A stretch of DNA of 64,000 nucleotides from a virus (lineage: Duplodnaviria; Caudoviricetes). Location: IMG/VR virus record IMGVR_UViG_3300031949_001696; one strand, 5' to 3'. The notes beneath the pieces are model-generated. The model made no database searches. It was not told the origin of the DNA and saw nothing but the letters and a program-made list of their open reading frames with translations. The position numbers and the translations under genes were made by a program. Below are positions 17,837-44,200 of this stretch, in pieces; within the stretch, counting starts at the first letter, position 1, and each line of letters opens with the position of its first letter.

Positions 17837-17846
17837 GGTTAGTTCC

Positions 17847-18129
17847 TTGCCTGTCCGGTTAGAGTCATGTTCGCCACTTGTTCCAAATAGCTAGCGCTTC
17901 CGGTGTTTGCGGGGGCACATCTTCGGCTGGGCAGTCTAGATCGTGTGCGCCGAATGCTTCGACGTAAGGCGTGTCGCCATCGCCGTCGCCGGGGGCGGTA
18001 CCGCAAGTGCAGGCCGGAATCACGTGAGCTTCCTCGCCGAATGGCGAGCGAAGCGCAGTCTCGATGTCGTCCGTTATGTCGTCCGTTATTCCGACGTCGG
18101 GCGCCTTGGGTGTCAACCGGATAAGCATG
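17847..18129. mobile_element. Non-autonomous TIR-bounded cargo cassette 1
   Basis: Ends TTGCCTGTCCGGTTAG... and ...TTGGGTGTCAACCGGATAAGCATG; flanked by direct repeat GTTAGTTCC (17838-17846, 18130-18138). Confidence 0.65.
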
Positions 18130-18385
18130 GTTAGTTCCGTTCCCGAGGCGAGGGCTTTTTGTTTGTGCCGACGATCGCCCCGACGGCTACGCTGACGACG
18201 AAGACTCCGATCAAGAAGATCCAGTTCATGCGACATGTTTCTTCCGCGATCGCCCGCAGAGGAAGCACCCCGTGTACGCGCGATCACCGCTCGCATACGG
18301 GGTGTCACCGGCGCTGAGGTAGGCGTGATCGAGGACCACGGCGCGAGGGTCAGCCTTCTTGGACGTGTCCTTCTCGCGCTGCACG

Positions 18386-18934
18386 CTAGTTTCCTTCCTC
18401 GGCGCGACGATCGCGTTCCTGTCGCGCGATGTCGAGAGCTGTTTCGAGCCCCGTGTCGCAGAGCGTGCCGAACAGATCGGTGAGGTGCTCGCGGAGCTCT
18501 GCGTGATACGTGTCGTTGTGCTCGACGTGCTGAGGCGTCACGACGAAGCCTTGCTCTGGTTCGATGACCGTAGGCTGCTCGACGACGATCGTAGTCCGTG
18601 CGGGCTGCGCGCTAGGAGCAACGCGCTTGATGAGCGCGCTCAGCTCTTCGCCGATCTCGGCGATCGCGTCGTTGGCGACCGCGATCCGAAGGCGCAGGGT
18701 CTTGCCGCGGCGGATCTCGAAGTGAGTGAGGCGGCCCCGCGGACCGCGGGGCTTCTTGCGCGAAGGGGGCACGACTCCGCCTTTATACTCGTCGTAGGGA
18801 CGTGTCTCCTTCGAACCTCGGAGAGACTCCGGGGCCCTACTCCGAAGAGACTCCGGGGCCCTACTCCGAAGAGACTCCGGTGCCCTACCCCGAAGAGACT
18901 CCTGCGCCCTGCCTCGAAGAGACTTGCGCGTCAT
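18386..18934 (-). CDS. Hypothetical protein with N-terminal 8-aa repeats (RAPESLR[G/S])
   Basis: 24-nt tandem repeat at ~18817-18925. Confidence 0.6.
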   Translation of the reverse strand: MTRKSLRGRAQESLRGRAPESLRSRAPESLRSRAPESLRGSKETRPYDEYKGGVVPPSRKKPRGPRGRLTHFEIRRGKTLRLRIAVANDAIAEIGEELSALIKRVAPSAQPARTTIVVEQPTVIEPEQGFVVTPQHVEHNDTYHAELREHLTDLFGTLCDTGLETALDIARQERDRRAEEGN

Positions 18935-19181
18935 CGACGTCTCCCGCCGCCGCGCTGGATGCCGAGTAGCTCGTAGATGTAGCCGCGCGTGAGACCCGAG
19001 TTGGCCGCCGGCCAGCCATACCGCGCGCGCCAGTCGTCGATCGTCTTCAGGATGCCGGGGTAGCGCTTGTCCTTCACGAGTTTCATCGCCTCGGGAAGTG
19101 TCAGACCAAACTTCGTCATGTCGAACTTCGCGGCCAGCCGGAAGTCGGCTTCGGTGAGGACGTCGCCCATCTCGTTTCGCT

Positions 19182-21045: not shown

Positions 21046-21049
21046 TGCC

Positions 21050-21403: not shown

Positions 21404-21501
21404 CCCGTCGACCCGTCGGGGCCGTCGGGGATCGGCATAACTGCACGTCGGCGAGAGGAAGGGACTGCTCGCGGCCAGGCTTCTTGAGGTAAACCTGCGG
21501 C

Positions 21502-22059: not shown

Positions 22060-22122
22060 TCGTCCTGATCACGTGGCGCCGCAGATCGTTCGCGGTGCAA
22101 CACCGGTGTTGGATGTAAGCTG

Positions 22123-24455: not shown

Positions 24456-24775
24456 AGACGATCGGACAGACGAGCAGCGGCAAGCCGATCTATGCCGCTT
24501 TCCAGTTGCATCGGAACTTCGACGGTTGGACGGCTGACGATCACGCCGATGCCGCCGAGGTGCATCGCGGCGCGGTTCGCAGTGACATCAAGACGAACGT
24601 GTCCATGCACGAGAACTCTGCGGCGCTCCACGGCGAAGAGATGCAGCGGATCTACAGGGCGGTCGAGAAGCTGGGCTTGGCGCCCGCCGCGGGCAAGAAG
24701 AAGAGTCACGCGCAGCTCGACCGCGAGATCGCCAAAGCGCTAGCTGGCCGTCGGACAGCTAGTAGCAGACGCTGA
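24452..24775 (+). CDS. Hypothetical protein with C-terminal [15 protein letters not shown] tag
   Basis: IG.T.SGKPIY N-terminus; shared motif. Confidence 0.7.
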
Positions 24776-24782
24776 TCGCCGT

Positions 24783-26030
24783 TCCGAAAAGCACTTTTCT
24801 TGCCCTGTTCGCACGAGATCTCTACCGTCGTCGTATGACCGAAGTGCAACGTCTTCCTGCCATTTGCCCCCCCGACGACTGCGAGGGCGAGCGCGGCGAG
24901 CGAGGCAAGCGCGGTCACCGCGGACATGACGGTCCGACAGGTCCGACAGGTCCGACAGGTCCGACAGGAACGACGGGCGTCGGCAGTACGGGTCCGACGG
25001 GTCCGACAGGTCCGACGGGCCCAACAGGATCAATCGGCTTGACGGGACCGACCGGCACAACTGGCGTCGGTACGACCGGACCCACAGGACCGACGGGGCC
25101 GAGCGACGGACCGACAGGCCCGACGGGCCCAACAGGATCGATCGGCCTCACGGGACCGACCGGCGCGACCGGTAGCGGCAGCACCGGTCCCACCGGTCCC
25201 ACAGGACCGACGGGGCCGAGCGACGGACCGACGGGCCCGACGGGGTCCACAGGACCGACGGGGCCGAGCGACGGACCGACGGGCCCGACGGGGTCCACAG
25301 GGCCCATAGGGCCCACAGGGCCCGCCGAAGCCGTCGCTCCACTGATTGCCGCCGCACGGGTCAATGCTGATGGCACCTTCGTCGCGCAGCAGGGTTTCGT
25401 CGGACCTATCACGCACGTTCCCGGATCCGGCGTGTACGAAATCACGCTGGTGACTCTTCCGGTAGACACTGACAATCTCGCGATCAACGTCACGCAAGTG
25501 GCCAATGGCTCACCTGGCGTCGGCGGCGAAGAGACCGCTGGTTTCGTTGCTCCAGGCGTCATCGCGGTCGTTACCTTCGATTCGACAGGTACGGCAGCAG
25601 ACCGTGGCTTCATGATCACTGTCTACGACCTGAATTGACTCGACGGTTGGCGGTTGGCGTCGACTAGCAAACTTTGGATCTGGGCGGATCGGTCACGTCC
25701 GGCCCTGTCGTTGACGGCTAAGACCGTGGCTTCATGATCACTGTCTTCGACCTGAATTGACCCGACGGCGTTTTTGATCGCGGTCAGCTGCGTCAGCTGC
25801 GTGATCGCGCTCCCTCCATCGTTGTCGTGGACGCCGTCTTACGCGGTCGCCAGTACGCCAGTGCGCGGATCGTTGATCACTGCTCATCGCGTGCCCGGTC
25901 CGAAAAGCACTTTTCTTGCCCTGTTCGCACGAGATCTCTACCGTCGTCGTATGACCGAAGTGCAACGTCTTCCTGCCATTTGCCCCCCTGACGACTGCGA
26001 GGGCGAGCGCGGCGAGCGTGGCAAGCGCGG
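24783..26030 (+). repeat. ~130-bp direct repeat (24783-24913 / 25899-26030) covering promoter and N-terminal coding region
   Basis: Near-identical, with two synonymous differences; includes GAAAAG-CA-CTTTTC palindrome and TTGCCC-17-TACCGT. Confidence 0.92.
24835..25638 (+). CDS. Collagen-like (GPT)n protein with C-terminal beta domain, a fibre/spike candidate
   Basis: Roughly 40 Gly-X-Y triplets, mostly GPT. Confidence 0.9.
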
Positions 26031-26751
26031 ACATCGAGGAGCCACGGGACCGACGGGCCCGGCGGGCCCCGAATCAGGAGCGTTGCTCGGTCGCCAGGTG
26101 TTCAACGTGGCTGGCAACGGCACGTACACACCTACGCCAGGTGCGCGCTCGGCGATCGTACGCGGCTGCGGCGGCGGTGGTGGGGGTGGCGGCGTCGGAC
26201 CGTCTGGTGCGAACGACGCGGCTGGCGTCTCGGGTGGGAACTCTGGGACTGCCATCGAGGTCGAGGTAGTGGCGCCGCTTAACACGCTTCTGACTGGTGG
26301 ACCCATCACGGTCGGGGCCGGCGCTCCGGGCATGGTGGGCAATAGCTCTGTCCAGACCGGGGGTGATTCGACGCTCGTGATTGGTGGCGTGACGCTGACG
26401 GCTCCTGGTGGAGTTGGAGGCAACTCGGGTGGTAATGGTTTCCTCATTCCCAACGTCGTCGGGTCGCCGCCTCCGAACGCGCCAGCCATCGGAGTTGACT
26501 ATCAGGCTGCTGATCCGGGTGGGTATGGCTTTGCAAACACGCTCAACAACGTCGCTCTCCGTGGCGGCGACGGTGGAAGTGGCGACTTCGGTATCGGTGG
26601 GCTCGGTAGCAATGGCCTCGTCAGTAACGGCAACAACGCGAGCGGCAACGGTGCAGGGGGTGGCGGAGCGTCGCAGCGGGGTGGTCAGCTCGCTGACGTC
26701 ACCGGCGGCGCCGGTACGCCGGGCCTCTGGATCATCGAAGAATACGCGTGA
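25951..26751 (+). CDS. Short-collagen, glycine-rich domain protein; N-terminus paralogous to 24835 gene
   Basis: Identical first 30 aa; G.YTP.PG...GGGGGG...G..G..IIEEY glycine-rich tail-associated pattern. Confidence 0.85.
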   Translation: MTEVQRLPAICPPDDCEGERGERGKRGHRGATGPTGPAGPESGALLGRQVFNVAGNGTYTPTPGARSAIVRGCGGGGGGGGVGPSGANDAAGVSGGNSGTAIEVEVVAPLNTLLTGGPITVGAGAPGMVGNSSVQTGGDSTLVIGGVTLTAPGGVGGNSGGNGFLIPNVVGSPPPNAPAIGVDYQAADPGGYGFANTLNNVALRGGDGGSGDFGIGGLGSNGLVSNGNNASGNGAGGGGASQRGGQLADVTGGAGTPGLWIIEEYA

Positions 26752-27377: not shown

Positions 27378-29157
27378 TCACGACTGGTTCCCCTAGTCGT
27401 GGCGACGCTCTCGAAGCAATGGGCGATCAAGGCTCGATCGGAGCATCGCGAGGTGCTGCCGGCAGAATCGGATCTTGTAGCTGCCGAGCACGAAGACGTG
27501 GATGTCGTCGCCTCGATCGTCGTTGGGATCGATCCTCCGTGCGCTGCGGCGGTCACCGGACCCAAGATGTCGATCACGGCGTCGCCTCTGGGATCTCGTG
27601 ATTGGCGTAGATCTTCCCGTACTGGAGGATGCTCGCGACCATCCAGTCGTAGCCCTCGAAGCCATCGGACGGCGTGCTCGGCGCATCGTCACGGACGATG
27701 CGCGCGGAAACTTCGGCGCGCCAGCCGTCGGACCAGCCGTAGGACCACGACCGGCCGTCGAGCTGAGCAGCGCGCGTGTCGTCGACCTCGCGCAGGAGCA
27801 CGTAGTTTCGGCGCTCGCCGGACCAGCCGCCGTTCCAGCTGGCTCGGCCGGGCATGGCGAGGCGGAACTCGACTCGGATCATGGGGACCTCACGAGCTTG
27901 CGGTACGCGCCGTAGCTGCTCTCGGGCGGGACGACCACGTACTTGAGGTGTGCCTTGCAGTACGGACACGTGATCGTGCCGATCGGGCGCACGAACGACG
28001 TGATCTCGCGTCGGCACGTCGGACAGTCGTCGAATCTCACCGGGTCCTCCTTCGCTTCGCAGTGCGCCGCGGCGGCGCGAGGATCTTGGCGACTTCGTCG
28101 GCCAGCTCGGCCACGAACGGTCGCCAGTCGGGCGGACTTGAGTGCCCGTCGTAGGCGGCGAGGTGCCGTGCGTCGTCCGCGAGCTTCCTCACGCGTGCGA
28201 GGGCTTCCTTGCGATCTGTTTCAGTCACGTGACCTCCTCCACTTCTCGCGGTACGCGCGAGCGAGCTTGATGGCACCTTCTGTTCGCGTGACGATGCGCC
28301 GTGTAATCGCGCGGATCTCGCCCACCAAGCGCTCGATCTCGGTGTCGAGATTGTGATCTTCCTTCGTCACAGCAGCGGCTCCGTCTGGGAGATGCCGATT
28401 TTCTCGGCGGCGTCGCGCGCGAACCTCGCGAGCGCGTTGTCGAGCGCGCGCCACGACGCCTTATCGTAGCCCTCCTTGCCGACCGCGGCTGTCCACAGGC
28501 GATGGAGCGTGGCGTGAGCTTCACGAAACGCAGTCAAGAACTCCTCGCGCGGGTAGGCGGCGACGTACTCCTGCCATCCAGTTGCTTGCATCGGCTTCCT
28601 CTCGTCGGTGAAGTTGTCGACGGGCGGCTCCAAGACAGATCGGCACTCGTCGACCGCGCCGACCAGCGCGAAGTGGTCGTCGAAGGGTACCGGGGACGTC
28701 CGCAGGCGCGCGGCGACCACGTAGACCTTGATCAGAGCCTCGTACTCGACGCGCAGGCGATGGATCGTCTCGCGGTTGTGGAGACACGCGGGGCACAAAG
28801 TCTGCACGCCGGATTTCGAAGCGCAGCTCGTGCATTCGGCGAATTCGTTCACGGGCGCGTACCCCCGCGCTCGGCCACGAGGATCGTGATTTCTTGCGCG
28901 AGGTCGAACGCGAGCTGCTCGACTTGTTCGCGCACGGTGCCGACGCGCGCGTCGAAGTCGACGGGGATCGGCAGATCCTCGTCGCAGCGCACGGCCTCGA
29001 CGATGGCGGCGGCGAGCTGTCGGCGCTTCTCGCGTTCGGCTTCGGTGGGTTCAGCAGGTTCTCCCATCTAGGACTCCTTCTGTTTCTTCGTGACGGCGCG
29101 CGTCGCAGCTCGCGAAGCTGATCATCGGTGATCGTATCGGCGGTCAGCCTTTGATCC

Positions 29158-29469
29158 ATGCTTGTCCGGTTGTCACCCAACGCTCCCATTGATAGCGCCA
29201 GGATCCGCAACTACACTCGATGTCTCGCCGCATTGAGCGCACACCAGCGACGCCCTCCTGGCCGCGAGCGATCCGATCTGGGCCCACGTCCAGGTGTTGA
29301 AGAACCCATCCTTCGGGTTTTGATGCAAGTCGCCGCAATGCGGACACGACAATCGGCCTGCCACCGGCTTTACCACGCGCCCAGAGGGATCGACGGCGGG
29401 GAGAAACATGGCGCCAAGAATTGGTTTCATAGTCGCCTCCTTGTTTTGGGCGTTAACCGGATAGGCATG
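29158..29469. mobile_element. TIR-bounded cargo cassette 2 (carries ORF 29173-29430, two CxxC)
   Basis: ATGCTTGTCCGGTTGTCACCCAA ... TTGGGCGTTAACCGGATAGGCATG; no clean flanking duplication. Confidence 0.62.
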
Positions 29470-30092
29470 CTTGGTAGTGTCCGTTGGCAGGCCGCTCGTG
29501 CTTGTGCTCGGGGCAGAGGTCGTGGGGAACGAAATCGTGACCGTTCCAGCGGTGTCCGGTCAGCCAGCGGTGTCGATCTGCATCGGTCGGCCAGTCGCTG
29601 TAGGGCAGTTCGATCCATCACACGCAGCCTGCGGGGTGGTCGCACGTGATCCGAACTTGCTTGCTCACAAGACTCCTTCCAGCTTGGCGAGCTCGTAGAG
29701 ATCTTCCTGCGCGGAGTCTCGCTCGTTGTAGCTGTACTTAACGGCATCGCGTGCGAGGTCGATCGCGCGCCGGAGGCGCGTCTTCAGATCGGCGACCTGC
29801 GCACGCAGGACCTCGCGTGCCATCTTCTTGGCTTCGTCGAAGTTCTTGGTCATCGATTCGCCGTAGAGGTGATCGAGCCAGCTCTCTTCGATCTTGATCA
29901 TCTGGGGCGGCTTGTCCCGTACACGCGCCTCTTCGCGTTTGGCACGCACGTGGGCGTTCGCTTGTTCCTCGCTCGTGTCGACGGCGACGAGGTACGGCCG
30001 GCCGCCGTCGGATGCGGCCTCCCAGACGATCCAGCACGGCTCCATGCCGGCCTCGGCCTTGAATTGCAGGGCTTCTTTTTCCTTCACGGCTC

Positions 30093-30560
30093 TTAGAACC
30101 CGAGGAACTTCAGCTCGACTGCCGTCAGCTCGTGGCCCTGCATGTATTCCTTGCCGTCGGGCGCGTAGCGGCGAAGGTCCTTCAGGTTGCGGACGATCAT
30201 GTCGAGCTTCTCGACCTGCGACTTTTCTCCCTCGATGTGGTCGCGCTCGGTGAGCAGCATGTTGACGACACCGGCGCCGATCGTGACGTCTTCTTCGCGC
30301 AGGCCGTCGTCGGACCGGACCTTCGAGTTGTAGACGAGGGCCATGGCACCGCGCTGCATCTGATCGCGTGCCTGCGCCATGATGTCGACGAGAGCCGCGT
30401 CGCTGATCTTGTACTCCTCGCGGACGCGCTTGATGCGGACTTCGCGCTCCTCGATCTTGCGACGGGTCGTGACCGCCTTGTCCTTGGCACGTTCCACGAT
30501 CTCGGCGGCGGGTTTTTCGAAGGTGAAGTTGAAGAGGCTGTCGATTCGCTGAACTTGCAT
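30093..30560 (-). CDS. Coiled-coil phage hypothetical protein
   Basis: Strong codon usage, RBS AGGAG, ends ELKFLGF. Confidence 0.7.
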   Translation of the reverse strand: MQVQRIDSLFNFTFEKPAAEIVERAKDKAVTTRRKIEEREVRIKRVREEYKISDAALVDIMAQARDQMQRGAMALVYNSKVRSDDGLREEDVTIGAGVVNMLLTERDHIEGEKSQVEKLDMIVRNLKDLRRYAPDGKEYMQGHELTAVELKFLGF

Positions 30561-31972
30561 GGTTTTTCGATCTCCTGGTTGTGGTGTTAGTTAGCTTTTC
30601 GTTGCCGTCGTTCGTATTCCTCGACGGTGATCATCATGACGCTGCATACCCAGTCCGATACCGGTACGCAGCAGATCGGTGGCGTCGCCGGGTTCGCGGT
30701 TTCGCGGATCTCCGCGTGCTCCGGCCACGAGCACCTCCACCGCAGGGTCTTCGGGACCGTGACCTTGATGTTCACGCGTCACCTCGGTACGGCAGCTCGA
30801 TGCGCTCGCGCTTGATCTCCTTCGAGGTCGGCTCGCACGGCCCGGCGTGATCGCGTCGGAGCCGGCACTGCCGGTTCGCGTAGTATCCGATCGTGCAGAT
30901 CGGATCTGTATCGCCGCCGAGGGCTTCGTACGGCATCCGTCGCGTGGTCACGCGGTAGACGCAGCCGTGCTGGAGACTCTTCCATGAGTCGTCCATGTAG
31001 ACGGAGTTGTGCTGGGACCAGATCGCGGTGGTCTCGATCGGGGTGCACACGAGGCACCGGAGGCGATCGTAGCCGTATGGAGGATTCTCTTTCTCGTAGC
31101 CCCAGTAGCACTCCTTGAACGCGTTGCAGGCTGGGCAGCGGGGCTCTCGCGCGAACGTGCTCTCGCAGGCGGTCTTGGATTCTTCGTAGCGGCGCTCGGC
31201 GGAGCCGTCGTGGTCGAGTAGGGCATGCTTGGCCGTGTTGAGCGCGTACGGCCACAGCCACGAGCTGCCGTCGACGTAGAGCCTCGGGAAGTCCCACGCG
31301 TTGTCGCCCGGGCGAAGCGCGACGCGGTCGAGGGGCAGGCCCGGCATGTCCACTTCCGTCGTGCGGATCCCGCGGTGGATCACGTAGCTGTATCGGCCGT
31401 CGGAGTTGTCGTTCGTGCGCCGCTCGATGCGGACGTGCGGAGGCCCGAGCAAAAGCTCGCGGCAGAACGCGCCGATGTTGTGCCGCGCGTCGCGGACGGA
31501 GCTTCCGTCGACAGGACCGGCGCCGGGGTTAATGATCATGACGGCCTCGACGTCTCTCACGGTTCCTCCGGCGATCGCGGCTGGGGTGGCTCGGGACACG
31601 TGTGCTTGGTCCGTGCCGCGTCGTCCGTCAGGCGTGCAGCGAACGTCTGCGCGGCGCATGCGCGGCAGGGATCGAGATCTTTGTCGAGACGGTGGGCTTC
31701 CAGTTCTTCGATCAGAAGAGGGAGGTTCGATCGGCGCACGATCGCCATGTGGCTGCGAAAGTGACCGGGCTCCCCGTCTGGGACGATCACGCGAATCTCG
31801 ACGGCGTCGTGTTCGTCGCCGTGCGGCGTCGACGCGATCTCGACCCTGTGCGTCGGTGATCCGGCGACGGCCGGGACCGTGGTGAGTCGCCGCGGCGTGT
31901 GCGCGATCGAGCGCTCGTCGTGTGTGATGGGCTTCCTGCCCAACTCGGGGCCGAAACCATGCTGCTCGATGG

Positions 31973-32215
31973 TCATGATTTCACCTTCTTTCGCTTCGGT
32001 GGATCGAGTAGGTCGGCGTGGAACCGCAGGGATGCTGCAACTGATTTTTCGACTGCCGTCGTGATGTCCTGCTGCACCTTGTCGTGTTGTGCGCAGCAGT
32101 TTTCGGCGTCGACTTTGTTATCGAACGTGGCGATGTAGATCTTCTTGTTGTTCCGCTGTGCGTACGCCTGCCAAACGACACGATCCTTGCGCTTGTGGGG
32201 CCTGACCATGCTCAT
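31973..32215 (-). CDS. AP2-like DNA-binding small protein
   Basis: WQAY...NKKIYIATFD...DA. Confidence 0.5.
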   Translation of the reverse strand: MSMVRPHKRKDRVVWQAYAQRNNKKIYIATFDNKVDAENCCAQHDKVQQDITTAVEKSVAASLRFHADLLDPPKRKKVKS

Positions 32216-35200
32216 GGAGCCTTCCTCCGCGCGCGGCGCACCGCTGCGAGCATCTCGCCGCACTCCTGTGTCCATACTTTGTGGACGAGCACGTAGTGAT
32301 CAGCTTTTTCGGGCCATACGAAGCCGTAACCGAAGAGATCGCGTGAGCCGAGTTCCTCGTCACAGATCCGGCAGTTCGCGCGACCCATGTAGCCCATCAG
32401 CACGTCGCCACCCATCGGGTTCATGGTCGTGCGGAGCTGGAGCGCGCGTCCCAGCTCCTCGCGATCGGCCCACGGGACGTCATCGCGAATGTGGTCTTTG
32501 GGTTGGCCGTGTTTGCGCCCGCCGGGAACGACATTGAGCAAGTCGAGCAGTGGCTGGAGCTCTCCGGCCAGCTCATCCCAGAACAGCAGCCTCTTGCCCG
32601 CGTCGGGTCCAGGCGCGCGCATCATCGCTCTGCCTTTTCCTTCATCTGCTCGACGTGGATGACCCACGCGCGCTCGGCCTCCTCCAGGGCGAAGAGCGTG
32701 TCACGCGGGTTCTTGGGATCGCGCGCGGCCACGAAGCCGTGTACGAAGCCCTCGTGTCGCAGGAGATCCTTCTGGTGGTGGTTGCTCACGGATGCACTGC
32801 TTGGTGGGGCGTTTCGTTATTCGTGTCGATCTGCTCGAAGGGAACGCAGAACGCGATGTCGCCCTCGACCATCACGTCGGCGTGCCCGTATGGGGCCGAG
32901 CACTCCTTGACCGTGAAGCGCCCAGAGCATTTGATGCGTAGGAGCGTGCCTCCTGGGCCATGGACCCAGATCGTGTTGCCGCCTTCGTCGAACTCTAGGC
33001 CGACGGCTTCGAACTGGACACGCGCACTCACCGTTGCACCGCCCGTCGGATCGCAGCGAGATCAGCCTCCAGCATGCCGACACCGCGGAACGAGGCGAGC
33101 GTGAAGTTGTTCTCCTTGATCAGGTGCACGACCATCTGACCGTCGTGGTGGCAGCGCCAGATCGTGGCGAGCGCGATGCCGAAGCCGCGCATGAACGCCG
33201 CGTCTTCGGGGGAGAGCTTCTTTACCTTCGGTGCTTTCTTCGCGGTCTTCTTGTAACGTCTCCGCGGGTTCATCTCTCGCTCCAGGTCGACCAGGTGCGC
33301 GTCGATGCCGCGTGCCTTGATGTCCGCGATCGCCGCACCGATCGAGGACTTCGCGATCAGCCCATCGAAGTCTCTTCGGGTGGCGTTTAGGGAATCTTCG
33401 CGGCGGTACCGTCGCACGTGGACCTCGATTGCGCGCTGGGTATCGTCGAGCATCGCGTAGCAGTCGCTCGACCAGCCGCATGAGCAGCGCGCGCGATGGC
33501 CGCCATGCGGCATGTACGTACCGTGCTCGTGGTGGATCTCGATGACGTGCTCCGATCCCAGCGCCCCCACGCGCACGTCGCGGCGCACTGCGGTGCTCGG
33601 CGATTTGCAGGCGGGGCATTCGCTGTCGATCGGTGTGGTCATGGTTTCTCCTTCGTCATCCGTCAACGCCTCTTCAACGCGAATCTAAGAAAGCGCGCGC
33701 CCTCTTCGTATCCCTTTTGGTATTCCGCTGAGGCTTCCGTGGGCGGCTCACCCATTTGCGCATCCATTTTCCCTCGTTCGAATCGAGCTTGCTGGATTCG
33801 CGCGGCCCGCGCTTCGTCGTCGGAGGGCTTTGCCTCTTGATTAGTCGGCACCTGGGGTTCTCTTTCCATTTTGTTCGACACTGGGAGGCCGACGATCGAT
33901 GTACTTGCGTCCGCAGCGCAGGCAGCGTCCGTAGCCGTTCCACAGCCGATCGCGCAGCTCGCAGTCGCACAGATCTTCCTTCGCAGGTTCGGTCACGTGC
34001 GCTCCTTGTGTTGGGCAGCTGCCTTGTCCAGCGCGTACGCCAACATCAGGCTCAGGTGCTTCGCGACGGCGAGCCAGCGCTCGTCAGTGATGAGCCGGTG
34101 CAGCTCCGCGAAGTGCGCGTGCCACGTCCAGCCGAGGAGGGTCGGCTCGGGCTTCATTGGTTGTTGGATGCTCGAGATTTCGGCCTTGAGCATCGTGTTC
34201 CACTGCTCGGGGATGACGTCAGTGATTGCTTGATCTTGTCGCGGACCTTATCGACGTACGTGGCGGGATCGAACTTGGTGACCTCAGTGCTCATGTTGCG
34301 CCTTTCGTTTCGGTGGACGGATCGGTCGTCTTCGTTGCTGCGCGCTCGGCGGCTTTCTGCCGTGACGGGTGATAGCCCGCGGCGTGGTAGCCGTAGTTCT
34401 TGCCTTTGCAGGCCCAGCCGACCCACGCGTAGCACGTGGGGCATTCGACGTCGGTGGCGTGAACGCGTGTGGTGCTCATGGGATCACGACCTCCCCGTTT
34501 TGAGCGGACGTGGACCTCGCGGGGTGAGCACGATGTGCGCGACGCTTGCTCCGTCGGCCCGCGAGACGGTTTCGGCCGCGTCCAGGACCTCGTTGAACCG
34601 ACGATCAGCCTCGGCGCGATTCTCGGGCTTCATCGCGCAGCCAAAGCAGATCAGCGCACCGTCCGGGCCGTACGGGCGCAGCTCGGTTTCCCCCCGCGGA
34701 TCCTCTCGGTCCGGCAGCTCGGGCCGACCGCACGCGCAGCAGACGCTCGCGGCACTCACTGCGGCAAGCTCCCACGGTAGCGCACGTCTGCGGGCGCGGT
34801 CGTGCCGTCCGCATAGAGGATCTCGGCCAGGACAGGGTAGTGCTCGGTGCCCGCGAAGCTCGGGATCTCGATCTTCGCGAGCGATCGGGCTTCGTCGAGC
34901 GTCACCGTCCGCGACCACACCACGCCGGTCTTGCCGCTGAGGAGCTGGAGCGTGATCGGGAACTTCTCCGGCGGGTAGTCATGTCGCGCGATCGGCTTGG
35001 TCACGGAACACTCCTCGCGGCGTCGACGGCGTCGAAGAGATGCGCATATAGACGCGCGCCGTCACGCATGTCGAAGCCGGGTCGGTTTGGATCGCGCACC
35101 GCGCACGCGGCTTCGTACACCGCGAGCAGCGCGGGGAGCGCGTTCACGGCGGCGACTGCCAGGCGGGAATCGTCGTCGAACTCCATGCCACCGATGTTGT

Positions 35201-36918
35201 ACTTCGTCGTCTGCGCGCCGATGCCTTTGCCCATGCGGTCGTCGTGAAGACACCACGGTGGCTGGTGCATCGCCTTCTCCAGTAGGGCGCGAAGTGCAGG
35301 GACGTCGATCACGAGGTCTTCCCTCGCATCATGGTGACGACGTCGACCGGGCGCACTGCGGCGCGTGGCGCTTCGCCGTCTTCCTTGAAGTAATGGTAGG
35401 GCAGCGCGTTCCATTCCATTTCCCGCACAGTGATGAGCTTGGTGTCGTCGTCACGCATGGCGTAAGCGCACATGACATCGCTGACGGGTCTGCCGTCCAC
35501 GACGTCGCGAAAGAACGCCGTGGGCATGAGGTAGCGTTTTTCCGTCGCGCGATCAGTCCAGACTTTCATGCGCAGTCGCAGAGTGCTCATCGCAACATCT
35601 CTCGCTGGTATCGTGCTCGGCTTCGTGAGGTCGCCGATGGCCACCGAGCGCATGTCATGGGGGCCTTCGTGCCCGACCGGCAGTGAGCACAACATCCAGC
35701 CGTCGGCGCTGGTGATCGGACACGCCGCGTTGGTCACGACTTTGGTCCTTCCGGCGGCATCACTCGTCGATGTGCGGTCGATCCGGGCGCGTCCGCGGGG
35801 CAGCTACAACACATGACGTAGCCAGGCGCTGGATTCGGGTGTCTCTTGCCGTAGCCGCATACCCACGTGTCGTTGCTCGCCGCGCTGTCGGTCACGAGTC
35901 GGCCTCCTTGCGATCTGCGGCTCTCAGCACGGGAGCATCGTCGCTCGCCGGTCTGACGTCGATGGAGGTACGCTCCTCCAGCTTCATCTCCAGATCTTCG
36001 ACGACCTTGCGGAGTCGCTCGCAGTCGCGCCGAGTTGCGGCGCTACAAGCGATCACGAGAGGGGCACGCGTCTGCGGAGGCAGTCCCTGATCGGTCATGT
36101 TGGCGATCACGCGCGCGTACGACACGAGGTCGACCTGCCGCTCGGCGAGGTCCTTCTGGGCTGCGGTGAGCTTCCGTTTGTGTTGGCGGTGGCGCGCGCT
36201 CATCAAGTGCTCCTCGTCGAATCGCGGGACTCCGCTACTTGCGCTTCCTGCGCTTCCTCAGCATCGATTTCGGCCCAGATCGACACGAACTGCGCGCTCG
36301 TCAGGTACCGCTTTGCTTTCTGAACGAAGAGTTCTTCGCGCGCTCTCGACGACGAGTGCCGATGCTGCTGACCCTTCAGCTCTGTGAGCTTCCGCTGCAA
36401 CGCGAGGGATGTCGTTTGAAGATCGGCTAGGTGCTGCTCGCGTTGGCGATACACGGCCGGCGGCTCGTAGATGCCGCGAGTCGCCGCGTTTGCCTTCGCC
36501 CGGCCGATCTGCACCTTGAGTTGGCGGATCTCGTTGTCGACTTTGTCTTTCATCAGGACGATTTCTGATCGTTGCTTCTCGAAGGTGGTAGCGGTGGGTG
36601 CGAGGTGGATCTGGACGTGCCGCGCAGCTTCCGCCTCGCGTTGCTGCTGTGCACGCTGGGACTTGTCGTCGTTCTCGCTTTGCTTGACGTTGCGCCACCA
36701 GCGGTTGCGGTCGCCCTCCCGGGTGTCGTGCGGCACGTCGTGCTCGTCGAGCGCGTCGCTCACGGCGTCGAGGTCGAACGGCGTCGCCAGCGTGGGCAGC
36801 CACAGCGTTTGGCCATCCGGCACGTAGATCAAAATCGTCTGCGGGTGTTCGGGGAACAGCGTGATCCGCAGGGGGCGAGGATCGAACGCACACGGCATCG
36901 GCGGCTTCGTCGGCATCG

Positions 36919-37395
36919 TCATCGGGGCGACCTCGTGCGCTTCGTCGGCATCAGCTTCGAGCGCTTGGGCAGCGGGATCTTGTTCGCCTTCATCATCGCG
37001 GTGAACGTCGGGAACAGCTTCGGACCTTTCTTGTCCTCGACTTCCTCGAACGTGACGGCTCCCCGCATGACGAGGATGCGCACGCCGATCGCGTCGAACC
37101 CCATCACGCGGATCCAGCCTTGACAGGGAATGTTGGACAGGACAGGTAATTTCGGCGAAGCTTGTGAAGCGATGGTTGCTCGATCGCTTGATGATCGAGA
37201 CATGTTCGTGCCGTCGTCTTTGCTGCTGCGCTGAATGTTGGCGAAGTGGCAAAGCATGCTGTGCAGACCGTCGTCCTGGCAGTTTTGCCAGACATCGACG
37301 AAATGCTGCGGGTCCCAGTAGTCGCGCGGAGCGTCGATGCGCCACGGGCAGTTCGAGCACGGCCGCCGGAGCTTCGTGGTAGCTGCCTCGGTCAC
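36919..37395 (-). CDS. DUF6283-like Cys-rich protein
   Basis: PC.NCPWR.D, CH, C.GW pattern. Confidence 0.55.
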   Translation of the reverse strand: MTEAATTKLRRPCSNCPWRIDAPRDYWDPQHFVDVWQNCQDDGLHSMLCHFANIQRSSKDDGTNMSRSSSDRATIASQASPKLPVLSNIPCQGWIRVMGFDAIGVRILVMRGAVTFEEVEDKKGPKLFPTFTAMMKANKIPLPKRSKLMPTKRTRSPR

Positions 37396-38045
37396 GTGCC
37401 GACCTTCCGCAGCTCGGCGATGCGCGCGCTGCCCCGCTGGTCGCGACGCCCGATGAAGTCGCCTTGCAGCTTGATCGCAGTCTCCGCAATACCGCACGCC
37501 TCGTCGCGTGCCGCGGTCATCGCAGCGAGACTCTTCAGCAGTAGGTCGATCTTCGTCCAGATGTCGCCGTGCCCCGGCACCATCTGGTGGAGGTCGTCGT
37601 AGCCGCGCTGTTTCGCGTCGATGTCGCCGAGCAAAACGAGGACTGTCATCGGGCCCGCGGCGTCGGCGAAGACTTCACGCGCGTTCGAGTTGACCAGTGC
37701 CGCCGCGGCGAGCGTGCGGAGCTTCTCGATCAATGCTCGTTGTTCCGCTGTCATGGAGCCCCCACCTTTCGCAGCTCGGCGATGCGCTTGAGCTTGTGTC
37801 CTGCGACGGCGGAGTGCGATTCGGCGATCGCTGCGATGGCACATGCCTCGTCACGCGCCGCGGTCATCTCGTCGAGCGCGCGGCGCAGCTCTCGCTCCAG
37901 CAGGTAGTTGTGGTCGAGGCTCGCGAAGTTGTGGCGACCGCCGTGGCCGGCGTAATAACGGCACTTGCGGTCGCTGATCTGGTCGTACGTCGAGCACATC
38001 TCGGGTTCAGTGGTCACAAAAACCTCCGATCGGTAAGATGTGGGC

Positions 38046-38666
38046 ATGGGCAAGACCGCCGCGCAGCTCGACCGGGAGATCGCAAAAGCGTTGGCGCGGC
38101 CGAAGTCTCTTCGGGTGGCGTTCAGGAAGTCGCGCAGGGGGCACGCCACCGTAGCGTGGGAACCGCGGGACGAGTCTGGTGACGCGTGGGATGTCGCGAG
38201 AGACGCGATCCTGGAGCACGACACCAAGCGCGCAGCCGACATCTGGCGGAGTATCCGTAAGGAGTACGGCGTGGAAGCAACTCGTCCGCCTTCGTTCGAT
38301 AAGGCGTTGGCCGAAGTACCGGCCGACGTACGGCAGAGATTCGAAGACGCGATCGGTGTGCAAACGGCAGCCAAGCACGTCAAAGCGATTCTCGACGCGA
38401 TTTACCGGTCGAAAGATCCTGATGCGCTGCTCACCGCGGTGAGTGCGGCCACCAAGCACGTGACCGCGATGAAGCGCGTCGCGCGAAAATTTGGAGGCGT
38501 CAGCCGACTGCTTGATTCGAGCGGCGCGTTCGATCCCCAGATGAGCGATCTGAACAACATGCTTGTCGGCGCCAAGGAAATGGTGCGGAGGATCAAGATT
38601 CAGCGCAAGACGGGGCGCTTGCCGAAGGCGACGAGCAGGACCGCTTGGCGTACGCGCGGAATGTGA
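38046..38666 (+). CDS. Counter-oriented leaderless gene with N-terminal [14 protein letters not shown] tag, GHAT and WDVARDAILEHD module
   Basis: TAAGAT 6 nt before ATG; homologous to 17060-17836. Confidence 0.78.
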   Translation: MGKTAAQLDREIAKALARPKSLRVAFRKSRRGHATVAWEPRDESGDAWDVARDAILEHDTKRAADIWRSIRKEYGVEATRPPSFDKALAEVPADVRQRFEDAIGVQTAAKHVKAILDAIYRSKDPDALLTAVSAATKHVTAMKRVARKFGGVSRLLDSSGAFDPQMSDLNNMLVGAKEMVRRIKIQRKTGRLPKATSRTAWRTRGM

Positions 38667-40447
38667 GAGCTTCCAAGTCACGGATAGTGTCCCTCGATCC
38701 GTACTAGTTCGTTCGCGAAGATCCGCTCGCCGATGCAGTTGTCGCAGACAGGACTCGCGGGGGCCGTCGGCGCATTCTTCACGAAGCGGTACAAGGCGCA
38801 GTCGTAGCCGGACGATCCGTAGTGGCCCTTCACGAGCCACTCGCCGACCGTGATCGACGGTGGCTGTTCGTGCCGGTTCGGGGCGCTCTCAAATTTCTTG
38901 GCCGTCTCTTCGGTGGCTTGAAAGACCGAAGCAGTGCAGTCGGCACCCTGCGTTCGCGTCTCGAAGGGAACGACGGCACGGTGCCGATTGCCGCACCAGG
39001 CGCAGACGACGGGGCGCGGAAACTGCGGTGATACGCCGATGAGGTCGTCGACGGCGACGCCAATGCGCTCGCGTACGGCCTCGAACGTCGCGTCGACCGC
39101 GTTCCACTTGAGTGGTAGTGGAGGCACGCTGTCGCGCAGGTCGCCGGCAATCTCGCTCGCCCCGTCGCCCAGGCGCTGGATCTCCTCCAGCAGCCGATGG
39201 TGCTGGGGCTCCGTCAGTTTCGATCCGTCGATCATCACGAGGTAGATCATGATCAATCCGATCATGCGTCGCGGAGGGTGCGCACGAGCGCGGTCGCGAA
39301 CTCCGTGGCGAGAAGCGAGTCGTCGGCGAGCACGAGTTTGCCGAGCGCGTCGCCGCATAGCTTCTCGATCCGCTCTCGGATGGGACCGGGGGCTCGAACT
39401 TGTTCGAACACGACCTCGCGCGCGACCTGCTGGATCGCGTCGTTGAACGCGTCTCGTAGCGGACTCGTGCGCGCGCCGTAGACGCCGTGACCCGAGGGTT
39501 TCTCTTCCAAGAGCGCGGCGATCGCGTTCTTGATCAGGTGCTCGCGCTTCTGGTCATCGAGCGACTTGTACATCGCCTCGATCACGCGCGCCTTCATCGC
39601 GGTGTCGTCCGTCATTACAGAAGCCTCCGAAATTCCGTCGTGGTGTGAATCCAGCCATCGTCGCATTCGATTTGCACGACGATCGCGTTGTCATCGCCGA
39701 TTCCGACGGTGACGATCCGGCCGATCAGCTTCCGTGTTTCATCGTGCAACGGCCCCTGTTTCTCGACGAGGGCCTCGACGCGTGTACCGATCAGCTCGGT
39801 GACGACGCGCGGACGGATGGAGCTGTCTCCAGTCATACAGCCTCCTTGCTGCCGCGCGCGATCGCGTCGGCCGTGGGCATGGGATCGTCGAGGTAGCCGC
39901 TGCCGTCGCAGCGCGCAGGGGGCAACGACGCGATCCACCAGCAGCTCTTCTCCTTCGAGTCTGGCGGCTCGAAGCAAAAGCCGATCCGGCGGTGCTCGTA
40001 CACCAGCTCGACGTGGGTCTCCCCGCCGGCCAGCGTGGTGTAGTGGAGATCGAGGAGCTTCACGGGGCTTCCTCGGTGTTGAAGTCGAAGCCGTGCAGCT
40101 CCGCGAACGTGTCGTCCCAGAAGCGCGTGACGATCTCGTGGGGCGTCGGTTTCTTGGTCGTCGTTAACCGGATGCCGATACCGTCGAGCTCGCGCACGGT
40201 GTGCCAGCGCCAGAACGTGCGCGTCGCACCGTCACGAGAGACACGGAATTTGACGGCCCAGGTGCCGGGATTGTTCGTGGCTTGGTCCTGGTGGGGTTTC
40301 ACGTCGACGATTCTGACGGTGATCATGTGCTCTTCTCCTTGTGCGCTCCGCGCTCCTCTCGTTTTCAGTTGGCGCATCGGTGCTCCTGACATTCTTGGGA
40401 ACTCGCGAAGTACGTCAGGCACGTCTGGCAGACGCGACGGTCGAAGC

Positions 40448-41248
40448 ATGCTTATCCGGTTGTCGCCCAATCACTTGGCAACCCGTCGATCAATAACCAC
40501 GGTCGCACCGCAGCGCTGGCAGTAGTTCTCACCGTCGCGCACGCTGCATTCGCCGCGCTCCTGGCACGACTTGAAGCACCCGCGCACGAAACCTTGAAGG
40601 AAGGCCAGATTGAGGCGCTTGCACTCCTCCTTGTATCTAGCCCAGTCGCTCTGCATTCCTACGACGGAGCCCCACGGTCCACGGAGCACAGGGCCGCCGG
40701 TCATCGACTGCTCACCGACGTCGAATGCCTCCATCTCGATTCGCTCAAGCTTTCGTTCGCCGCTCAAGACGAGATGCACGACTGCGTTGTTCCATTCGGT
40801 CTCGATGGCCGGCTTTGTGTGGTTATCGGTCACTTGCAAGCTCCTTGGGTTAGCACCCATCGATCATCCCGCCTTACGCCGAAGCGTGAACATTCCAGGT
40901 CTAAGCTGGACGCGCTCATAGTCCGGGTTCAGGTATTCGACGCACTTTCCACCACACGGCGGGCATAGCGTTTCATCCTGCGTTCTGGAGCTGATAAGCT
41001 CATCCGCGTTATACGAGGACGAGTGGAGGTAGCCGAATGTCTGCGTGCAGCAGCAACATTTTCCAACGCCTCCCCACCAGCCACCTTGCGGAAGTTGACT
41101 CCCGCCAATTGGGCGACCATGCGGGCATGCCACGACGCTCATGCGGCTCCTTGGGTGATAAGCGGAAGTTGACTCCCGCCAATTGGGCGACCATGCGGGC
41201 ATGCCACGACGCTCATGCGGCTCCTTGGGTGATAACCGGACAGTCATG
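40448..41248. mobile_element. TIR-bounded cargo cassette 3 (two lower-GC Cys-rich ORFs)
   Basis: ATGCTTATCCGGTTGTCGCCCAA ... TTGGGTGATAACCGGACAGTCATG; flanked by GGTCGAAGC (40439-40447, 41249-41257). Confidence 0.75.
41088..41235. repeat. Perfect 74-bp tandem duplication
   Basis: 41088-41161 identical to 41162-41235. Confidence 0.95.
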
Positions 41249-44200
41249 GGTCGAAGCACGCGTTGCACATCTCGAAGCGCACCGTGCCGTCCTTGCGACG
41301 CACGGTCGCGCGTTCGTCAGCCAGGGCGCAGGTGCATGCACATTGTACAGCGCTCATCGATCTGCCCCCTTCGCGGCGGATCGCCGCGCTGCCAGCTCGT
41401 CGAGCGCGCGGACGAGCAGCGTGTCTCCCGACGTCGTCGAAGCGCGCAGGAAGCCCAGCTCGGCGTCGGTGAGGAAGTCCGTGTCCGCGTTCTCCGCGTG
41501 CTGGACGATCTCGGTCTTCGCGGCCTCCGATCGCGGCCGACCGTCGTCCTGGTCGCAGCCGTGCCCGCGATGCCAGTCGCGCCAGTGGCCCACGAACCAT
41601 GGCGGCGTGTGATCGGTGCAGGACTTGGACACCGCTTGCTCCGTCATCGAGGCCCCCTGACCACGGCTGCGTGGTTTTTCGCTCGGTCTTCTCGTCGTCG
41701 TCGCAAAAGATACGCGACGGCGCCGCTGCACGGCGGGCAGAGGTGTCCGTGAGCGTGCTGCGTGCAACCTGACTCCTCGGGCTCGGGCTCCGGTGCCCCG
41801 AAGATCATGCCAACAACAGAGGTGATGGCGGAGTCGACGACATGTTGTCGGCTCATCGAAAATTCGACGACATAGAGGATCTCCGCGCCACAGCCGACGC
41901 ACGCACTCTTGAGGCGTATTCCGTCCGCGTTCACGTCGACGACGGGTTGATCAGTTTTCAGCATGTAGTTGTCATCCGCGGTGCGCCAATTCCTTAGCAG
42001 CCATTACGTGCGTTCAGGATCTCGGCGCAGCGGGCGCGCGCGGCAAGCTTGGACTGCGATGGAAACGGCCGCCGTTCCCCGAGCGCGACTGAGATCGTGG
42101 TGTAGGTCAAGCCATGAAACGGCAACACTCGCCGCAGCTCGCGAAGCTGATCATCGGTGATCGTATCGGCGGTCAGCATTTGATCTCCCTTGGGTGTCAA
42201 TCGGATAAGCACGGTTAGTTCCAATCACTCACCAGCCACCAGGCTGCCTTCTGACCGTCGATCTTGATGCCCATCGCCGCGCAGAATTCGGCGAGCGCGG
42301 CGTCCCAGGCGGGATCCACGGCCAGCGAAGTGATTTCGTTCATGTCGCCACGGTTGCTGATCGTTCGCGACGCCTGCACGGCCACGTAGGGCATTGGGCA
42401 CTCGCCCGAGCAGTGCGTGTCGATCAAGCACGTGGCCTCTTCGACGAGCTTTCGCTTCGCGGCCCAGTACGCCGTGTGCTGGTCGATGATCGCCTGCTCT
42501 TCGGCGCTGTAGTCCGTTGGCGTCGAGTTCCAGCCGTTCTCGCGCGTGGGCGTGACCATGCGTGCGGGGAACGGTGTGCTCGGCGGCAGGCAGCCCTTCG
42601 TGCGGGCGTAGCGTCCCTCCCAGTCGTCGTCGGGATCGATCTCCCACGGGCGTGAGGTCTCGTCGTCCCAGCAGTAGCCGTAGAACAGGATCGCGTCGGT
42701 TGACGTACCCATATCAGAGCCTCCTCTCCACCAGATCAACACCGAGCTCGTCCGGGACCTCGCCTGCCATGTGCAGCGGCTCCTCGAACTCGATCGCGCG
42801 CATACTGCACCGACCGATAGGTTCGCCGAACGCCTTGATCGTGTAGAGCTGTCCACGCCAGCTCACGCGATCGCCGACGTGGATCGCGCGGCCCGCACTG
42901 TCCTGCGGATCTCTCATAGTGATGATTTCTCCGTCGATGGTGGCGGCGGCACTTCGACGATGCGGAAGCCGCCCTCTTCGGGGATCAGCGCCACGTACTT
43001 TTTCGCCTTGATGATGGGGCCCGGATCGGTGCCGAGCGGCAAGAACGGCCATGTCTGCGTCACGACCAGCGCCGACCGCGCGAAACCATCGACATCGAGG
43101 TCGCACCATCCGACGACCTCGGGTCGGCATGGTCCGCCGAGAGCAGAGATCAGGGCGCGGTATGCGTCGTGGCCCTGTCCTTCCATCCCATAGCAGACGA
43201 CACCGTGGCAGCCGTGCGCCGCGGTCTTGAGCGGTAGCTTGGGCCGCTTCTCCTCGACGAAGCCGCGCCCCGCGGCGACGGCCTGCCGGGCCCAGGCCGG
43301 TTCGATCGGCTCCGTCGAGACGACTGAACCCGGACCGAACAGCCGTTTCATCAGCTCTGCCGTCGCGCCGTTTGGTGGATCGCCCTCGGGCCACAGCAGC
43401 ATCTCGACGAATGCGACGATCTGGAGCCCGAAGGCTTCGCGTGTTCCCGCCCACATCTCTGGCCGTGCCTCCATGCGCGCGAAGCGGTCGAAGATGTGAC
43501 GCTCTGTTTGATCGTGGGTCACGGAATCTTCACCCCTGGTAGTTCCGCGAGACGTTCGCGCAAGGCGCGCAGGCGCGGGGCGTCCTCGGTCTCGTACTCA
43601 CGCCCCTTGTCGGAGGTGATCTCGTCGAGCGCGTCGATGATGGCGCAGACGTCGGCGGCCGACAGCGCGGCGCGATAGACAAAAGGTCGGGATTCGCGCC
43701 GGGTCCTGCCCTCCTCGTCCGGTCTCCACGACGGGCGTGTCTGGGCTTGTGCCCAGCCGCGGTCGTCGATCATGACGTCGGGTGACTTCAAGGGATGCTC
43801 AGATCCGGCAAGGTTTCGATCGAATTCATCCAGGCTCGAACCGCGTCCTCTTCGATGAAGACGAGGGCCGCGATCTGTGTGCTGGGGACGCGCATTTGCG
43901 CCGTGGCGCGGTACGTCTCTTGGTCGCCGCTCGCGATCACGGCGCATACGTCGAGATCGACAAACGTCGGCGAGTGTGCGTTTTCGCGGAAGTCGTACAC
44001 GTGTGCGTAGGCCGCGGCGATCTTCCGCGACGCGCACGGTGTCGTCGGAAGTCGCGGCAAGGGCTCCGGGCCGTTGAACGTGACGAGAGCCAGGCGGCTG
44101 TTCTTGTCGCCGATCATGTCTTGGGCCTCTTGGTCCTAGCCGCGACGAGCGCTCGCGACTTGTCGCCGAGACGGCGCTTGTCGGCACGACGATCGGTATC

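Follow-up and report, generated by a model that had tools for sequence, protein, structure and literature searches.

Transposase-free gene cassettes in a soil jumbo phage are very probably mobile insertion cassettes derived from an IS1595-family insertion sequence

Introduction

Mobile insertion cassettes (MICs) are units in which the ends of an insertion sequence (IS) surround at least one gene other than a transposase gene, with no gene for a transposase inside. MIC231 of Bacillus cereus is a cassette of this kind derived from IS231 (Chen et al. 1999, as cited in PMC6542083). Here we describe a family of small gene cassettes in a 64,000-nucleotide stretch of phage DNA (the window; IMG/VR virus record IMGVR_UViG_3300031949_001696, Duplodnaviria, Caudoviricetes). 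The surrounding genome is that of a soil jumbo phage of at least 268 kb; the window lies on a 267,828-bp ENA contig, and a protein index also lists its proteins on a contig of 332,853 bp. We conclude that the window units are very probably non-autonomous derivatives of an IS1595-family element, that is, MICs moved by a cognate transposase acting in trans.

Like MIC231, the window units have IS ends around non-transposase genes, contain no transposase gene and would need a cognate transposase. They differ from it in their parent (IS4/IS231 for MIC231, IS1595 with its 8-bp duplication here), in residing in phages, including a jumbo phage, and in being very compact, usually with one gene whose ribosome-binding site (RBS) comes directly after the end. 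Mobilization of MIC231 in trans was reportedly demonstrated experimentally; the units described here are known from their sequence alone.

The IS1595 family is characterized by AT-rich 8-bp target duplications and by transposases with a zinc finger and a DDE_Tnp_IS1595 domain (PMC8101967, PMC12561309). The transposase-encoding partner elements that we found share with the family the zinc ribbon and DDE_Tnp_IS1595, a basic size of about 1.1 kb, inverted repeats and AT-rich 8-bp duplications, and in both some members carry passenger genes. The window units differ from the family in having no transposase. Siguier, Gagnevin and Chandler are said to have divided the family into groups in 2009, with a zinc ribbon reportedly present in all of them except IS1016.

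Two other kinds of small element invite comparison. MPME1 and MPME2, attributed to Sampson et al. in 2009, are reportedly ultra-small phage elements of about 440 bp with 11-bp repeats and one conserved open reading frame (ORF) of their own. By that description the window units resemble them in being ultra-small, in residing in phage genomes and in having short inverted repeats and a small ORF; MPME1 and MPME2 differ in having no varied cargo and no known link to IS1595. Miniature inverted-repeat transposable elements, or MITEs, likewise lack autonomy, with inverted ends and duplications, and the family described here has 70- to 303-bp non-coding members. MITEs are short and non-coding, whereas the window units are coding, each with at least one ORF preceded by an RBS. 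A survey of viral MITEs (2024) found them in only 0.01% of viral sequences, described IS as rare in phages, and made no mention of cargo, passengers or IS1595 (PMC11602168). Our search of the literature on IS1595 or MICs in phages turned up no description of this cassette family, which does not prove that none exists.

Results

Inverted pairs of a 24-nt end

The window contains three inverted pairs of a 24-nt end and one solo end. The consensus TTGGGYGWYAACCGGAYARKCAYG occurs exactly at 18106-18129(+), 29157-29180(-), 29446-29469(+), 40447-40470(-) and 41225-41248(+), and once more, with one mismatch, at 42190-42213(+). A seventh, decayed end is the left end of cassette 1 (17846-17869), in which the outer 15 nt match at 13 of 15 positions and the inner half is gone. 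The number of matches expected by chance was zero (100 dinucleotide-preserving shuffles of the window), and a position weight matrix built from 79 distinct ends found no additional strong site anywhere in the 64 kb. The layout is therefore one of three pairs (17846/18129, 29157/29469 and 40447/41248; cassettes 1, 2 and 3) and a solo end at 42190-42213 (end 4). On the plus strand every pair reads CATG…CCCAA on the left and TTGGG…CATG on the right.

A first-pass annotation of the window had proposed a family of tiny cassettes with inverted ends of about 23 bp. With six clean 24-bp ends against none expected, these ends are real. Its sites stand, with two left ends off by one base. Orientation of the motif is not random: in the window, as in some 110 further elements, it is strictly (-) on the left and (+) on the right.

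Transposase-encoding elements with the same ends

The same ends bound IS1595-family transposase genes in other phages and in bacteria. We sought the end motif in IMG/VR by an exact pattern and then scanned the resulting loci with a relaxed one. The exact pattern was present in 37 stretches of viral contigs (loci designated L below), and the sole DNA similarity between the window and these loci was a single match, about 50 bp long and located at an end. In the relaxed scan the viral ends paired as (-)…(+) with spacings of about 235 bp to 2.6 kb, nearly all with a perfect 8-bp repeat. A scan of prokaryotes, with one genome per species, gave at least 120 stretches with the motif. Among the matches listed, which are mainly proteobacterial, ends were always paired and elements had perfect 8-bp duplications. 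These bacterial elements were IS copies of 1071-1169 bp, many non-coding MITEs of 70-303 bp, and a few cargo-bearing units. One metagenome-assembled genome of Paracoccaceae had eight 1112-bp IS copies, and bacterial genomes among the same matches had multi-copy MITEs with differing duplications. In our sample, and for bacteria among the matches listed, phage-borne copies are mostly cargo-only and bacterial copies mostly plain IS or non-coding MITEs.

Elements of 1.07-2.6 kb with these ends encode a transposase in both phage contigs and bacterial genomes. The long viral members (L012/L026, L014, L022, L007, L001 and a composite in L030) have transposases of 338-347 aa. These proteins match PF12762 (DDE_Tnp_IS1595) with E of about 1e-32 to 1e-34 (two at 9e-34 and 4e-32), the zinc ribbon PF12760 was found at E of 5e-07 and 4e-12, and the NCBIfam model NF033547, 'IS1595 family transposase', was matched at 184-186 bits (cut-off 75; E 1e-54 to 1e-55). 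An alignment of the transposases has D, D, H-x6-K and E-x3-R-x2-R, with conserved C…C…C…C columns. The element ends, which start CATGCTTATC, and the catalytic motif tentatively suggest the ISSod11 group, an assignment made from the definition of that group rather than from a comparison with an ISfinder entry. In the ISfinder scheme the group has ends of the form nnnGcnTATC, a DDHK plus ER4R7 motif and a length of 1.0-1.1 kb. In a tree, seven phage-borne transposases fell into about three clusters that were interleaved with bacterial ones.

The IS copies also have expression signals in their ends. The transposase ORF closes at a TAA or TGA within one end, and the other end has TTGACA, 17 nt, and then TATAGT, TATGCT or TAGTGT, which resembles an inward σ70 promoter. 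A transposase ORF together with such a putative promoter is a layout typical of insertion sequences. The first-pass annotation had proposed looking for an enzyme bounded by the same ends and had named three candidates, of which the DDE transposase was found, in its IS1595-family form, and not a Cas1-like integrase or a tyrosine recombinase.

Target duplications and empty sites

Insertion is associated with duplication of an AT-rich 8-bp target. Perfect 8-bp duplications, AT-rich as in IS1595, flank 82 of 106 elements from the viral contigs, the window and the bacterial genomes (27 of the 36 viral and window elements), and 79 distinct reconstructed targets give the palindromic consensus GWWYRWWC. 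With so many different targets, the repeats are unlikely to belong to a longer conserved motif. In the window, exact direct repeats lie outside two cassettes, as had been noted: GTTAGTTC(C) around cassette 1, which agrees with the consensus at seven of eight positions, and GGTCGAAG(C) around cassette 3. The length of 9 bp given to them earlier was wrong, since the family-wide length is 8 bp and the ninth matching base is incidental. Duplications of the parental type are thus present around cassettes 1 and 3 and missing from cassette 2 and end 4.

Cassette 3 was inserted into a coding sequence. Excision of the cassette in silico, together with one copy of the duplication, joined the two gene fragments in an ORF of 60 codons, of which nine encode Cys and two His. 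A search with the reconstructed 60-aa protein returned a 62-aa protein with 72% identity over 90% of its length and also the window's own truncated 37-aa product. The gene for the 62-aa protein is intact on four related jumbo phage contigs (L171-L174), which are syntenic with the window and free of the end motif. In an alignment with L171, the window sequence after excision runs through the junction with no gap; therefore, the cassette entered a coding sequence, and the CATGA of its end gave a new stop.

Empty sites were also found for two cassettes in IMG/VR. A 380-bp cassette in L011 (element 1) is missing from the orthologous intergenic site of L030, and the RNA-ligase cassette of L011 is absent from L159, L160 and L161. 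The latter is inserted precisely at the start of a gene, at its initiation codon, that appears polymerase-like (judged by eye from a DFET exonuclease-type motif), and its duplication, GTATGATT, includes that ATG. Empty alleles, the absence of which would have counted against the first-pass annotation, thus exist for three cassettes.

Two readings without transposition can be weighed against these data. The motif might be a regulatory operator of the phage or a palindrome that controls translation, as its position at gene starts, overlapping the RBS and ATG, could suggest. Yet in other genomes a transposase gene lies between copies of it, unrelated phages and bacteria have it as well, the 8-bp duplications next to it comprise 79 different sequences, and orthologous sites of relatives are without it; we give this reading next to no weight, and the empty sites refute it. 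Promoterless single-gene units that are co-oriented with the operon, and the tandem cassettes of L032 described below, also recall integrons or another cassette system served by a site-specific recombinase. Two inverted ends with a target duplication are, however, the signature of a DDE enzyme and not of one attC-type site, and identical ends were found to enclose a gene for a DDE transposase, which makes this possibility equally negligible. Integron-like and homing readings alike are ruled out by the target duplications, by the empty sites and by the DDE transposase linked to the ends. The features of an integron gene cassette (a single attC, no duplication, IntI) are not those of the window units; no integrase-directed search of the window was made.

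The missing transposase and the cargo

The window units contain cargo genes in place of a transposase gene. A tblastn search of the 64-kb window with four transposases found no IS1595 transposase, in agreement with the first-pass annotation, and the cargo ORFs of the window have no transposase domain. Because the same ends bound a transposase elsewhere and the window has none, we regard the window units as non-autonomous derivatives and not as IS. In each of them IS ends surround at least one non-transposase gene and no gene for a transposase, so that, as judged from their sequence, they appear to be of the MIC kind, derived from an IS1595-family IS.

Cargo differs from cassette to cassette. 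The viral contigs have about 17 distinct cargo-only units of 280-1200 bp, in which the ORF starts 34-59 nt from one end, after GGAG. Identified cargo comprises an N6/N4 DNA methylase (L021), Mom (L017), an RNA ligase (L011) and a MazG-like protein (L009); the cargo of L005 has a weak nucleoside deoxyribosyltransferase-like match below the Pfam cut-off. Among the cargo-only cassettes compared, no cargo was common to two of them at E<1e-6. For the proteins encoded by the window cargo, Pfam and ESM Atlas gave nothing above threshold. The protein of cassette 2 and both proteins of cassette 3 are Cys-rich and zinc-ribbon-like, and that of cassette 1 is weakly so. Thus, the earlier description of the cargoes as unrelated and Cys-rich holds for their lack of mutual similarity and for cassettes 2 and 3, and weakly for cassette 1.

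Most of the near-complete cassette-bearing phage genomes searched have no transposase of this family. We searched ten cassette-bearing IMG/VR records over their whole length for PF12762. Seven of these are at least 98% complete, and PF12762 was missing from six of the seven. The exception (IMGVR_UViG_3300050119_000104; loci L024, L027, L028 and L170) is a complete 117-kb phage genome with about 28 ends; it has about 14 short copies, mostly non-coding and 235-256 bp long, together with one IS1595 transposase and TnpB genes, a transposon load that is unusually heavy for a phage. Cassettes without a transposase in near-complete genomes, together with multi-copy MITEs, would be the pattern expected for mobilization in trans.

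Some phage copies of the IS do have passengers in addition to a transposase: L022 has a transposase and a 468-aa DNA methylase, and L012, L001, L007 and L014 have extra ORFs. The cassettes could then be relics formed in place, in which an autonomous IS arrived with its passenger, later lost its transposase gene by deletion, and never moved in trans. The decay of cassette 1, cassette 2 and end 4 would fit such a history. We consider it unlikely, because the cassettes hold little beyond an RBS and an ORF between their two ends and retain no fragment of a transposase, all cargo-only cassettes compared differ in cargo, short non-coding copies with different duplications show that mobilization in trans occurs in the family, and six near-complete phage genomes have cassettes and no transposase.

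TnpB genes lie between ends of the IS1595-type family (GTGGGTGTCAACCGGATAAGCACG) at L028:5316-6454, L024:4200-5335 and L129:3494-4632. The TnpB of L028 matches NF040570 at 202 bits, and those of L024 and L129 were assigned by tblastn similarity to it. None of the three units has a target duplication, and in L028 a MITE is inserted in the tip of the end of the TnpB unit. TnpB, an RNA-guided nuclease family, would be unusual as cargo of an IS1595-type cassette.

Orientation and expression signals

The cargo is oriented with its neighbors and starts just inside the upstream end. In the window, cargo and adjacent genes are all on the minus strand, and the upstream end runs into GGAG and the cargo start, as proposed in the first-pass annotation. 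Read on the minus strand, this end is C-ATG-CTT-ATC-CGG-TTG-ACA-CCC-AAG-G ('MLIRLTPK'); the downstream end terminates, on the gene strand, in …AAGC-ATG. We determined the orientation of flanking genes by a codon-position GC score, the longest-ORF approach being unreliable in high-GC DNA. Cargo was co-oriented in 11 of 11 cases with both flanks on the same strand, and in mixed-strand contexts it agreed with at least one neighbor where both flanks could be scored.

Cargo-only units do not have the -10 element seen in the IS copies and therefore probably rely on read-through transcription. In several units a short frame from the ATG of the end stops at or overlaps the cargo ATG (e.g., …GGAGCTAGATGATG), an arrangement that suggests translational coupling.

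Elements of the window

Only cassette 3 looks like a clean recent insertion; cassettes 1 and 2 and end 4 appear decayed or rearranged. The positions of the four elements and of associated features are given in Table 1.

Table 1. Cassettes, ends and associated features of the window
Feature	Position	Strand	Remarks
Cassette 1	17846-18129	-	284 bp; upstream end 18106-18129 intact, downstream end 17846-17869 decayed
Cassette 1 cargo ORF	17865-18128	-	87 aa when read from the ATG in the end; ENA gene call also 87 aa
Cassette 1 target-site duplication GTTAGTTC	17838-17845 (left copy), 18130-18137 (right copy)		
Cassette 2	29157-29469	-	313 bp; ends 29157-29180 and 29446-29469
Cassette 2 cargo ORF	29173-29430	-	85 aa, CxxC…CxxC; stop is a TGA within the downstream end
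56-bp repeat	29101-29156		96% identical to 42130-42185; outside cassette 2, inside end 4
Cassette 3	40447-41248	-	802 bp; ends 40447-40470 and 41225-41248; perfect 8-bp duplication
Cassette 3 cargo genes	40864-41145, 40471-40836	-	93 aa and 121 aa, respectively
Cassette 3 target-site duplication GGTCGAAG	40439-40446 (left copy), 41249-41256 (right copy)		
Host zinc-finger gene, N-terminal 37 codons	41244-41357	-	split by cassette 3; gene caller product 37 aa (P0003)
Stop TGA of truncated zinc-finger gene	41244-41246	-	contributed by cassette 3 end (CATGA)
Host zinc-finger gene, orphaned C-terminal part (…FDRRVCQTCLTYFASSQECQEHRCAN*)	40365-40445	-	highest GC3 of three frames, 0.71
Probable scar of two adjoining inner ends (TGGGTG-CTA-ACCCAAGGAG)	40841-40859	-	between the two cargo genes of cassette 3
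74-bp tandem duplication	41088-41240		inner half of upstream end, RBS and first 18 codons of first cassette 3 cargo gene
End 4, solo upstream end	42190-42213	-	1 mismatch, CGTG tip; then inward GGGA and 61-aa gene (41994-42179)

Cassette 1 appears to be an older insertion that is shared (or fixed), because the relative L178, where the adjoining protein is 90% identical, has exactly the same sequence over the 3' part of the cassette and the duplication. No empty site was obtained for it, L178 carrying the same cassette. Going by the gene table of another contig (P0012), cassette 1 would not seem to fit in the 101 bp that precede the homologue of the 258-aa gene.

Cassette 2 lies in a segment that differs between relatives. 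It has no target-site duplication (CTTTGATC versus CTTGGTAG). The relative L177 is syntenic on either side (77% and 73% amino-acid identity), with about 850 bp between that are non-homologous, and no empty site was obtained from it since the segment is replaced there. Homologues of the cassette 2 cargo found elsewhere have 61-93% identity. One freshwater run had a 93-96% copy of the cassette, with a match that ends at 29469 and only 9 letters beyond.

Between conserved genes, window positions 27461-34795 and the corresponding regions of L171/L175 differ by whole blocks of roughly 7 kb, and cassette 2 is within one such variable block.

The 74-bp tandem duplication in cassette 3 is a self-match of 79 bp with 98.7% identity. 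By coordinate arithmetic the ENA assembly of the same phage is without it, and a Logan contig breaks there; it is either polymorphic or an effect of assembly.

End 4 is one-sided. Homology to L171 ends exactly at its outer tip, and the sequence flanking it, GGAACTAAC, belongs to the conserved upstream gene as its native 3' end; this gene finishes …TGGAACTAAC in the window and …TGGGACTAAC in L171. The 566 bp inside the end (41648-42213) stand in place of a 142-aa gene of L171, and this replaced segment has no second end.

The three cassette regions had no megablast match among 50,697 phage records, and a search of IMG/VR with two flanking proteins found no relatives.

Tandem units and recombination

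The family can build arrays by re-inserting in its own duplicated target. L032:3546-4580 consists of two tandem cassettes with three copies of the 8-bp target GAAAGAAC between and around them. This makes it plausible that 40841-40859 in cassette 3 is the scar of two abutting ends. The first-pass annotation had pointed to a fused remnant here, and it is present: on the gene strand, ACCCAAGG is confined to element ends and this spot. We think it probable that 40841-40859 is what remains of fused tandem cassettes.

Recombination may also have left traces. The 56-bp repeat encodes a common N-terminus, LTADTITDDQLRELRR, and suggests recombination between copies or between paralogues. End 1 with its 9-bp flank (18104-18138) has a 35-bp near-copy in end 4 with its flank (42188-42222). 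The probability of two independent hits on the same 8-mer, estimated from target frequencies, is about 1e-3, and we therefore suspect recombination between element copies. In L030, an insertion was accompanied by loss of about 360 bp of the neighboring gene.

These traces raise the question of whether the family spreads mainly by homologous or illegitimate recombination, with the ends as handles and transposition as a minor route. The L030 loss, the near-copy of end 1 and end 4 with their flanks, the 56-bp repeat beside cassette 2 and end 4, and the location of these two elements in replaced segments without duplications are all on its side. Such a route does not account for the perfect duplications around three quarters of the viral and window elements, nor for the simple empty sites of cassette 3 and the two IMG/VR cassettes, and we judge it highly improbable.

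Proposed mobilization and its limits

We propose that each unit retains the two 24-bp inverted repeats for the transposase and that passenger gene(s) replace the transposase gene. A cognate DDE transposase, acting in trans, would recognize the two ends and place the unit in an AT-rich 8-bp target, GWWYRWWC, duplicating it. The transposase might come from elsewhere in the phage genome of at least 268 kb, from the host chromosome or from a co-infecting phage. The outer tip CATG provides an ATG, the inner end leads to GGAG and the cargo start, and the ends hold TGA and TAA stops. Upon insertion in a packed operon, the upstream frame would be terminated and the cargo expressed by read-through transcription. 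Such stop, RBS and start signals in the ends would explain the co-orientation of surviving copies with their neighbors. Mobilization in trans, this logic of expression, tandem fusion into the two-gene cassette 3 and a benefit of the cargo are all inferred from DNA sequence.

Several points weigh against this account. Transposition has not been observed, and that the cassettes feed the accessory blocks of phages, as the first-pass annotation held, is inferred from the diversity of cargo in other phages. The search for a transposase covers 64 kb of a genome of at least 268 kb, so that for this phage a source beyond its own genome is conjectural. Of the four window elements, cassette 3 alone combines two intact ends with a confirmed empty site; cassette 2, in a replaced segment, lacks a duplication, end 4 is one-sided, and cassette 1, with one end decayed, also occurs in a relative. 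Recombination rather than transposition may account for the placement or present form of these three. Contigs from four sequencing runs (28500-42500) included none that skips a cassette; they break at the ends and are uninformative either way. Finally, the translation signals in the ends could be a by-product of conservation for transposase binding alone. The proposal of a transposase-less family of gene cassettes is thus upheld by the ends, the empty sites and the transposase partner, and is qualified in that only cassette 3 is a clean recent insertion.

Implications

The finding extends a known kind of element, because the mechanism, DDE transposition of a non-autonomous derivative, is conventional. 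Gain of small accessory genes by phages ('morons', counter-defence) has mostly been credited to illegitimate or homologous recombination. Here, one transposon family has a different single gene in almost every copy, at gene boundaries, in many unrelated environmental phages that include complete genomes without the transposase, and among its known cargo are classical anti-restriction functions, namely DNA methylases and Mom. These observations suggest that IS1595-type cassettes are one route by which phages acquire accessory genes. The 24-bp end provides a searchable marker of recently acquired phage accessory genes, and the cassettes offer a testable mechanism of gene exchange between phages and hosts.

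A wider reading is tentative, and we think it somewhat more likely to fail than to hold. An IS1595-type lineage would have turned into a cassette platform for phage accessory genes, in which the ends serve as portable stop, RBS and start signals, tandem arrays arise by re-use of the target, cassettes become fused when abutting ends are lost, and the cargo is largely counter-defence. If true, phages would have a counterpart of the integron that is driven by a transposase, with promoterless genes dropped in operons without polarity and a cargo pool of DNA methylases, Mom, RNA ligase, MazG-like proteins and many small zinc-binding proteins. The platform would be widespread in phages of diverse environmental metagenomes and unreported.

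Other features of the jumbo phage

In window positions 1-1617 and in the ENA locus L164/L166, a Ro60/TROVE-vWA protein adjoins an RNA ligase. Precomputed Pfam hits for the jumbo phage include PCRF/RF-1 release-factor domains in a product of 173 aa, one endonuclease each of the LAGLIDADG and HNH types, and a faint match to PTH2. Direct repeats are present in window positions 24709-26069: 24779-24953 resembles 25895-26069 (90%, 177 bp), 24949-25208 resembles 25069-25322 (75%), and 25599-25646 resembles 25721-25768 (96%).

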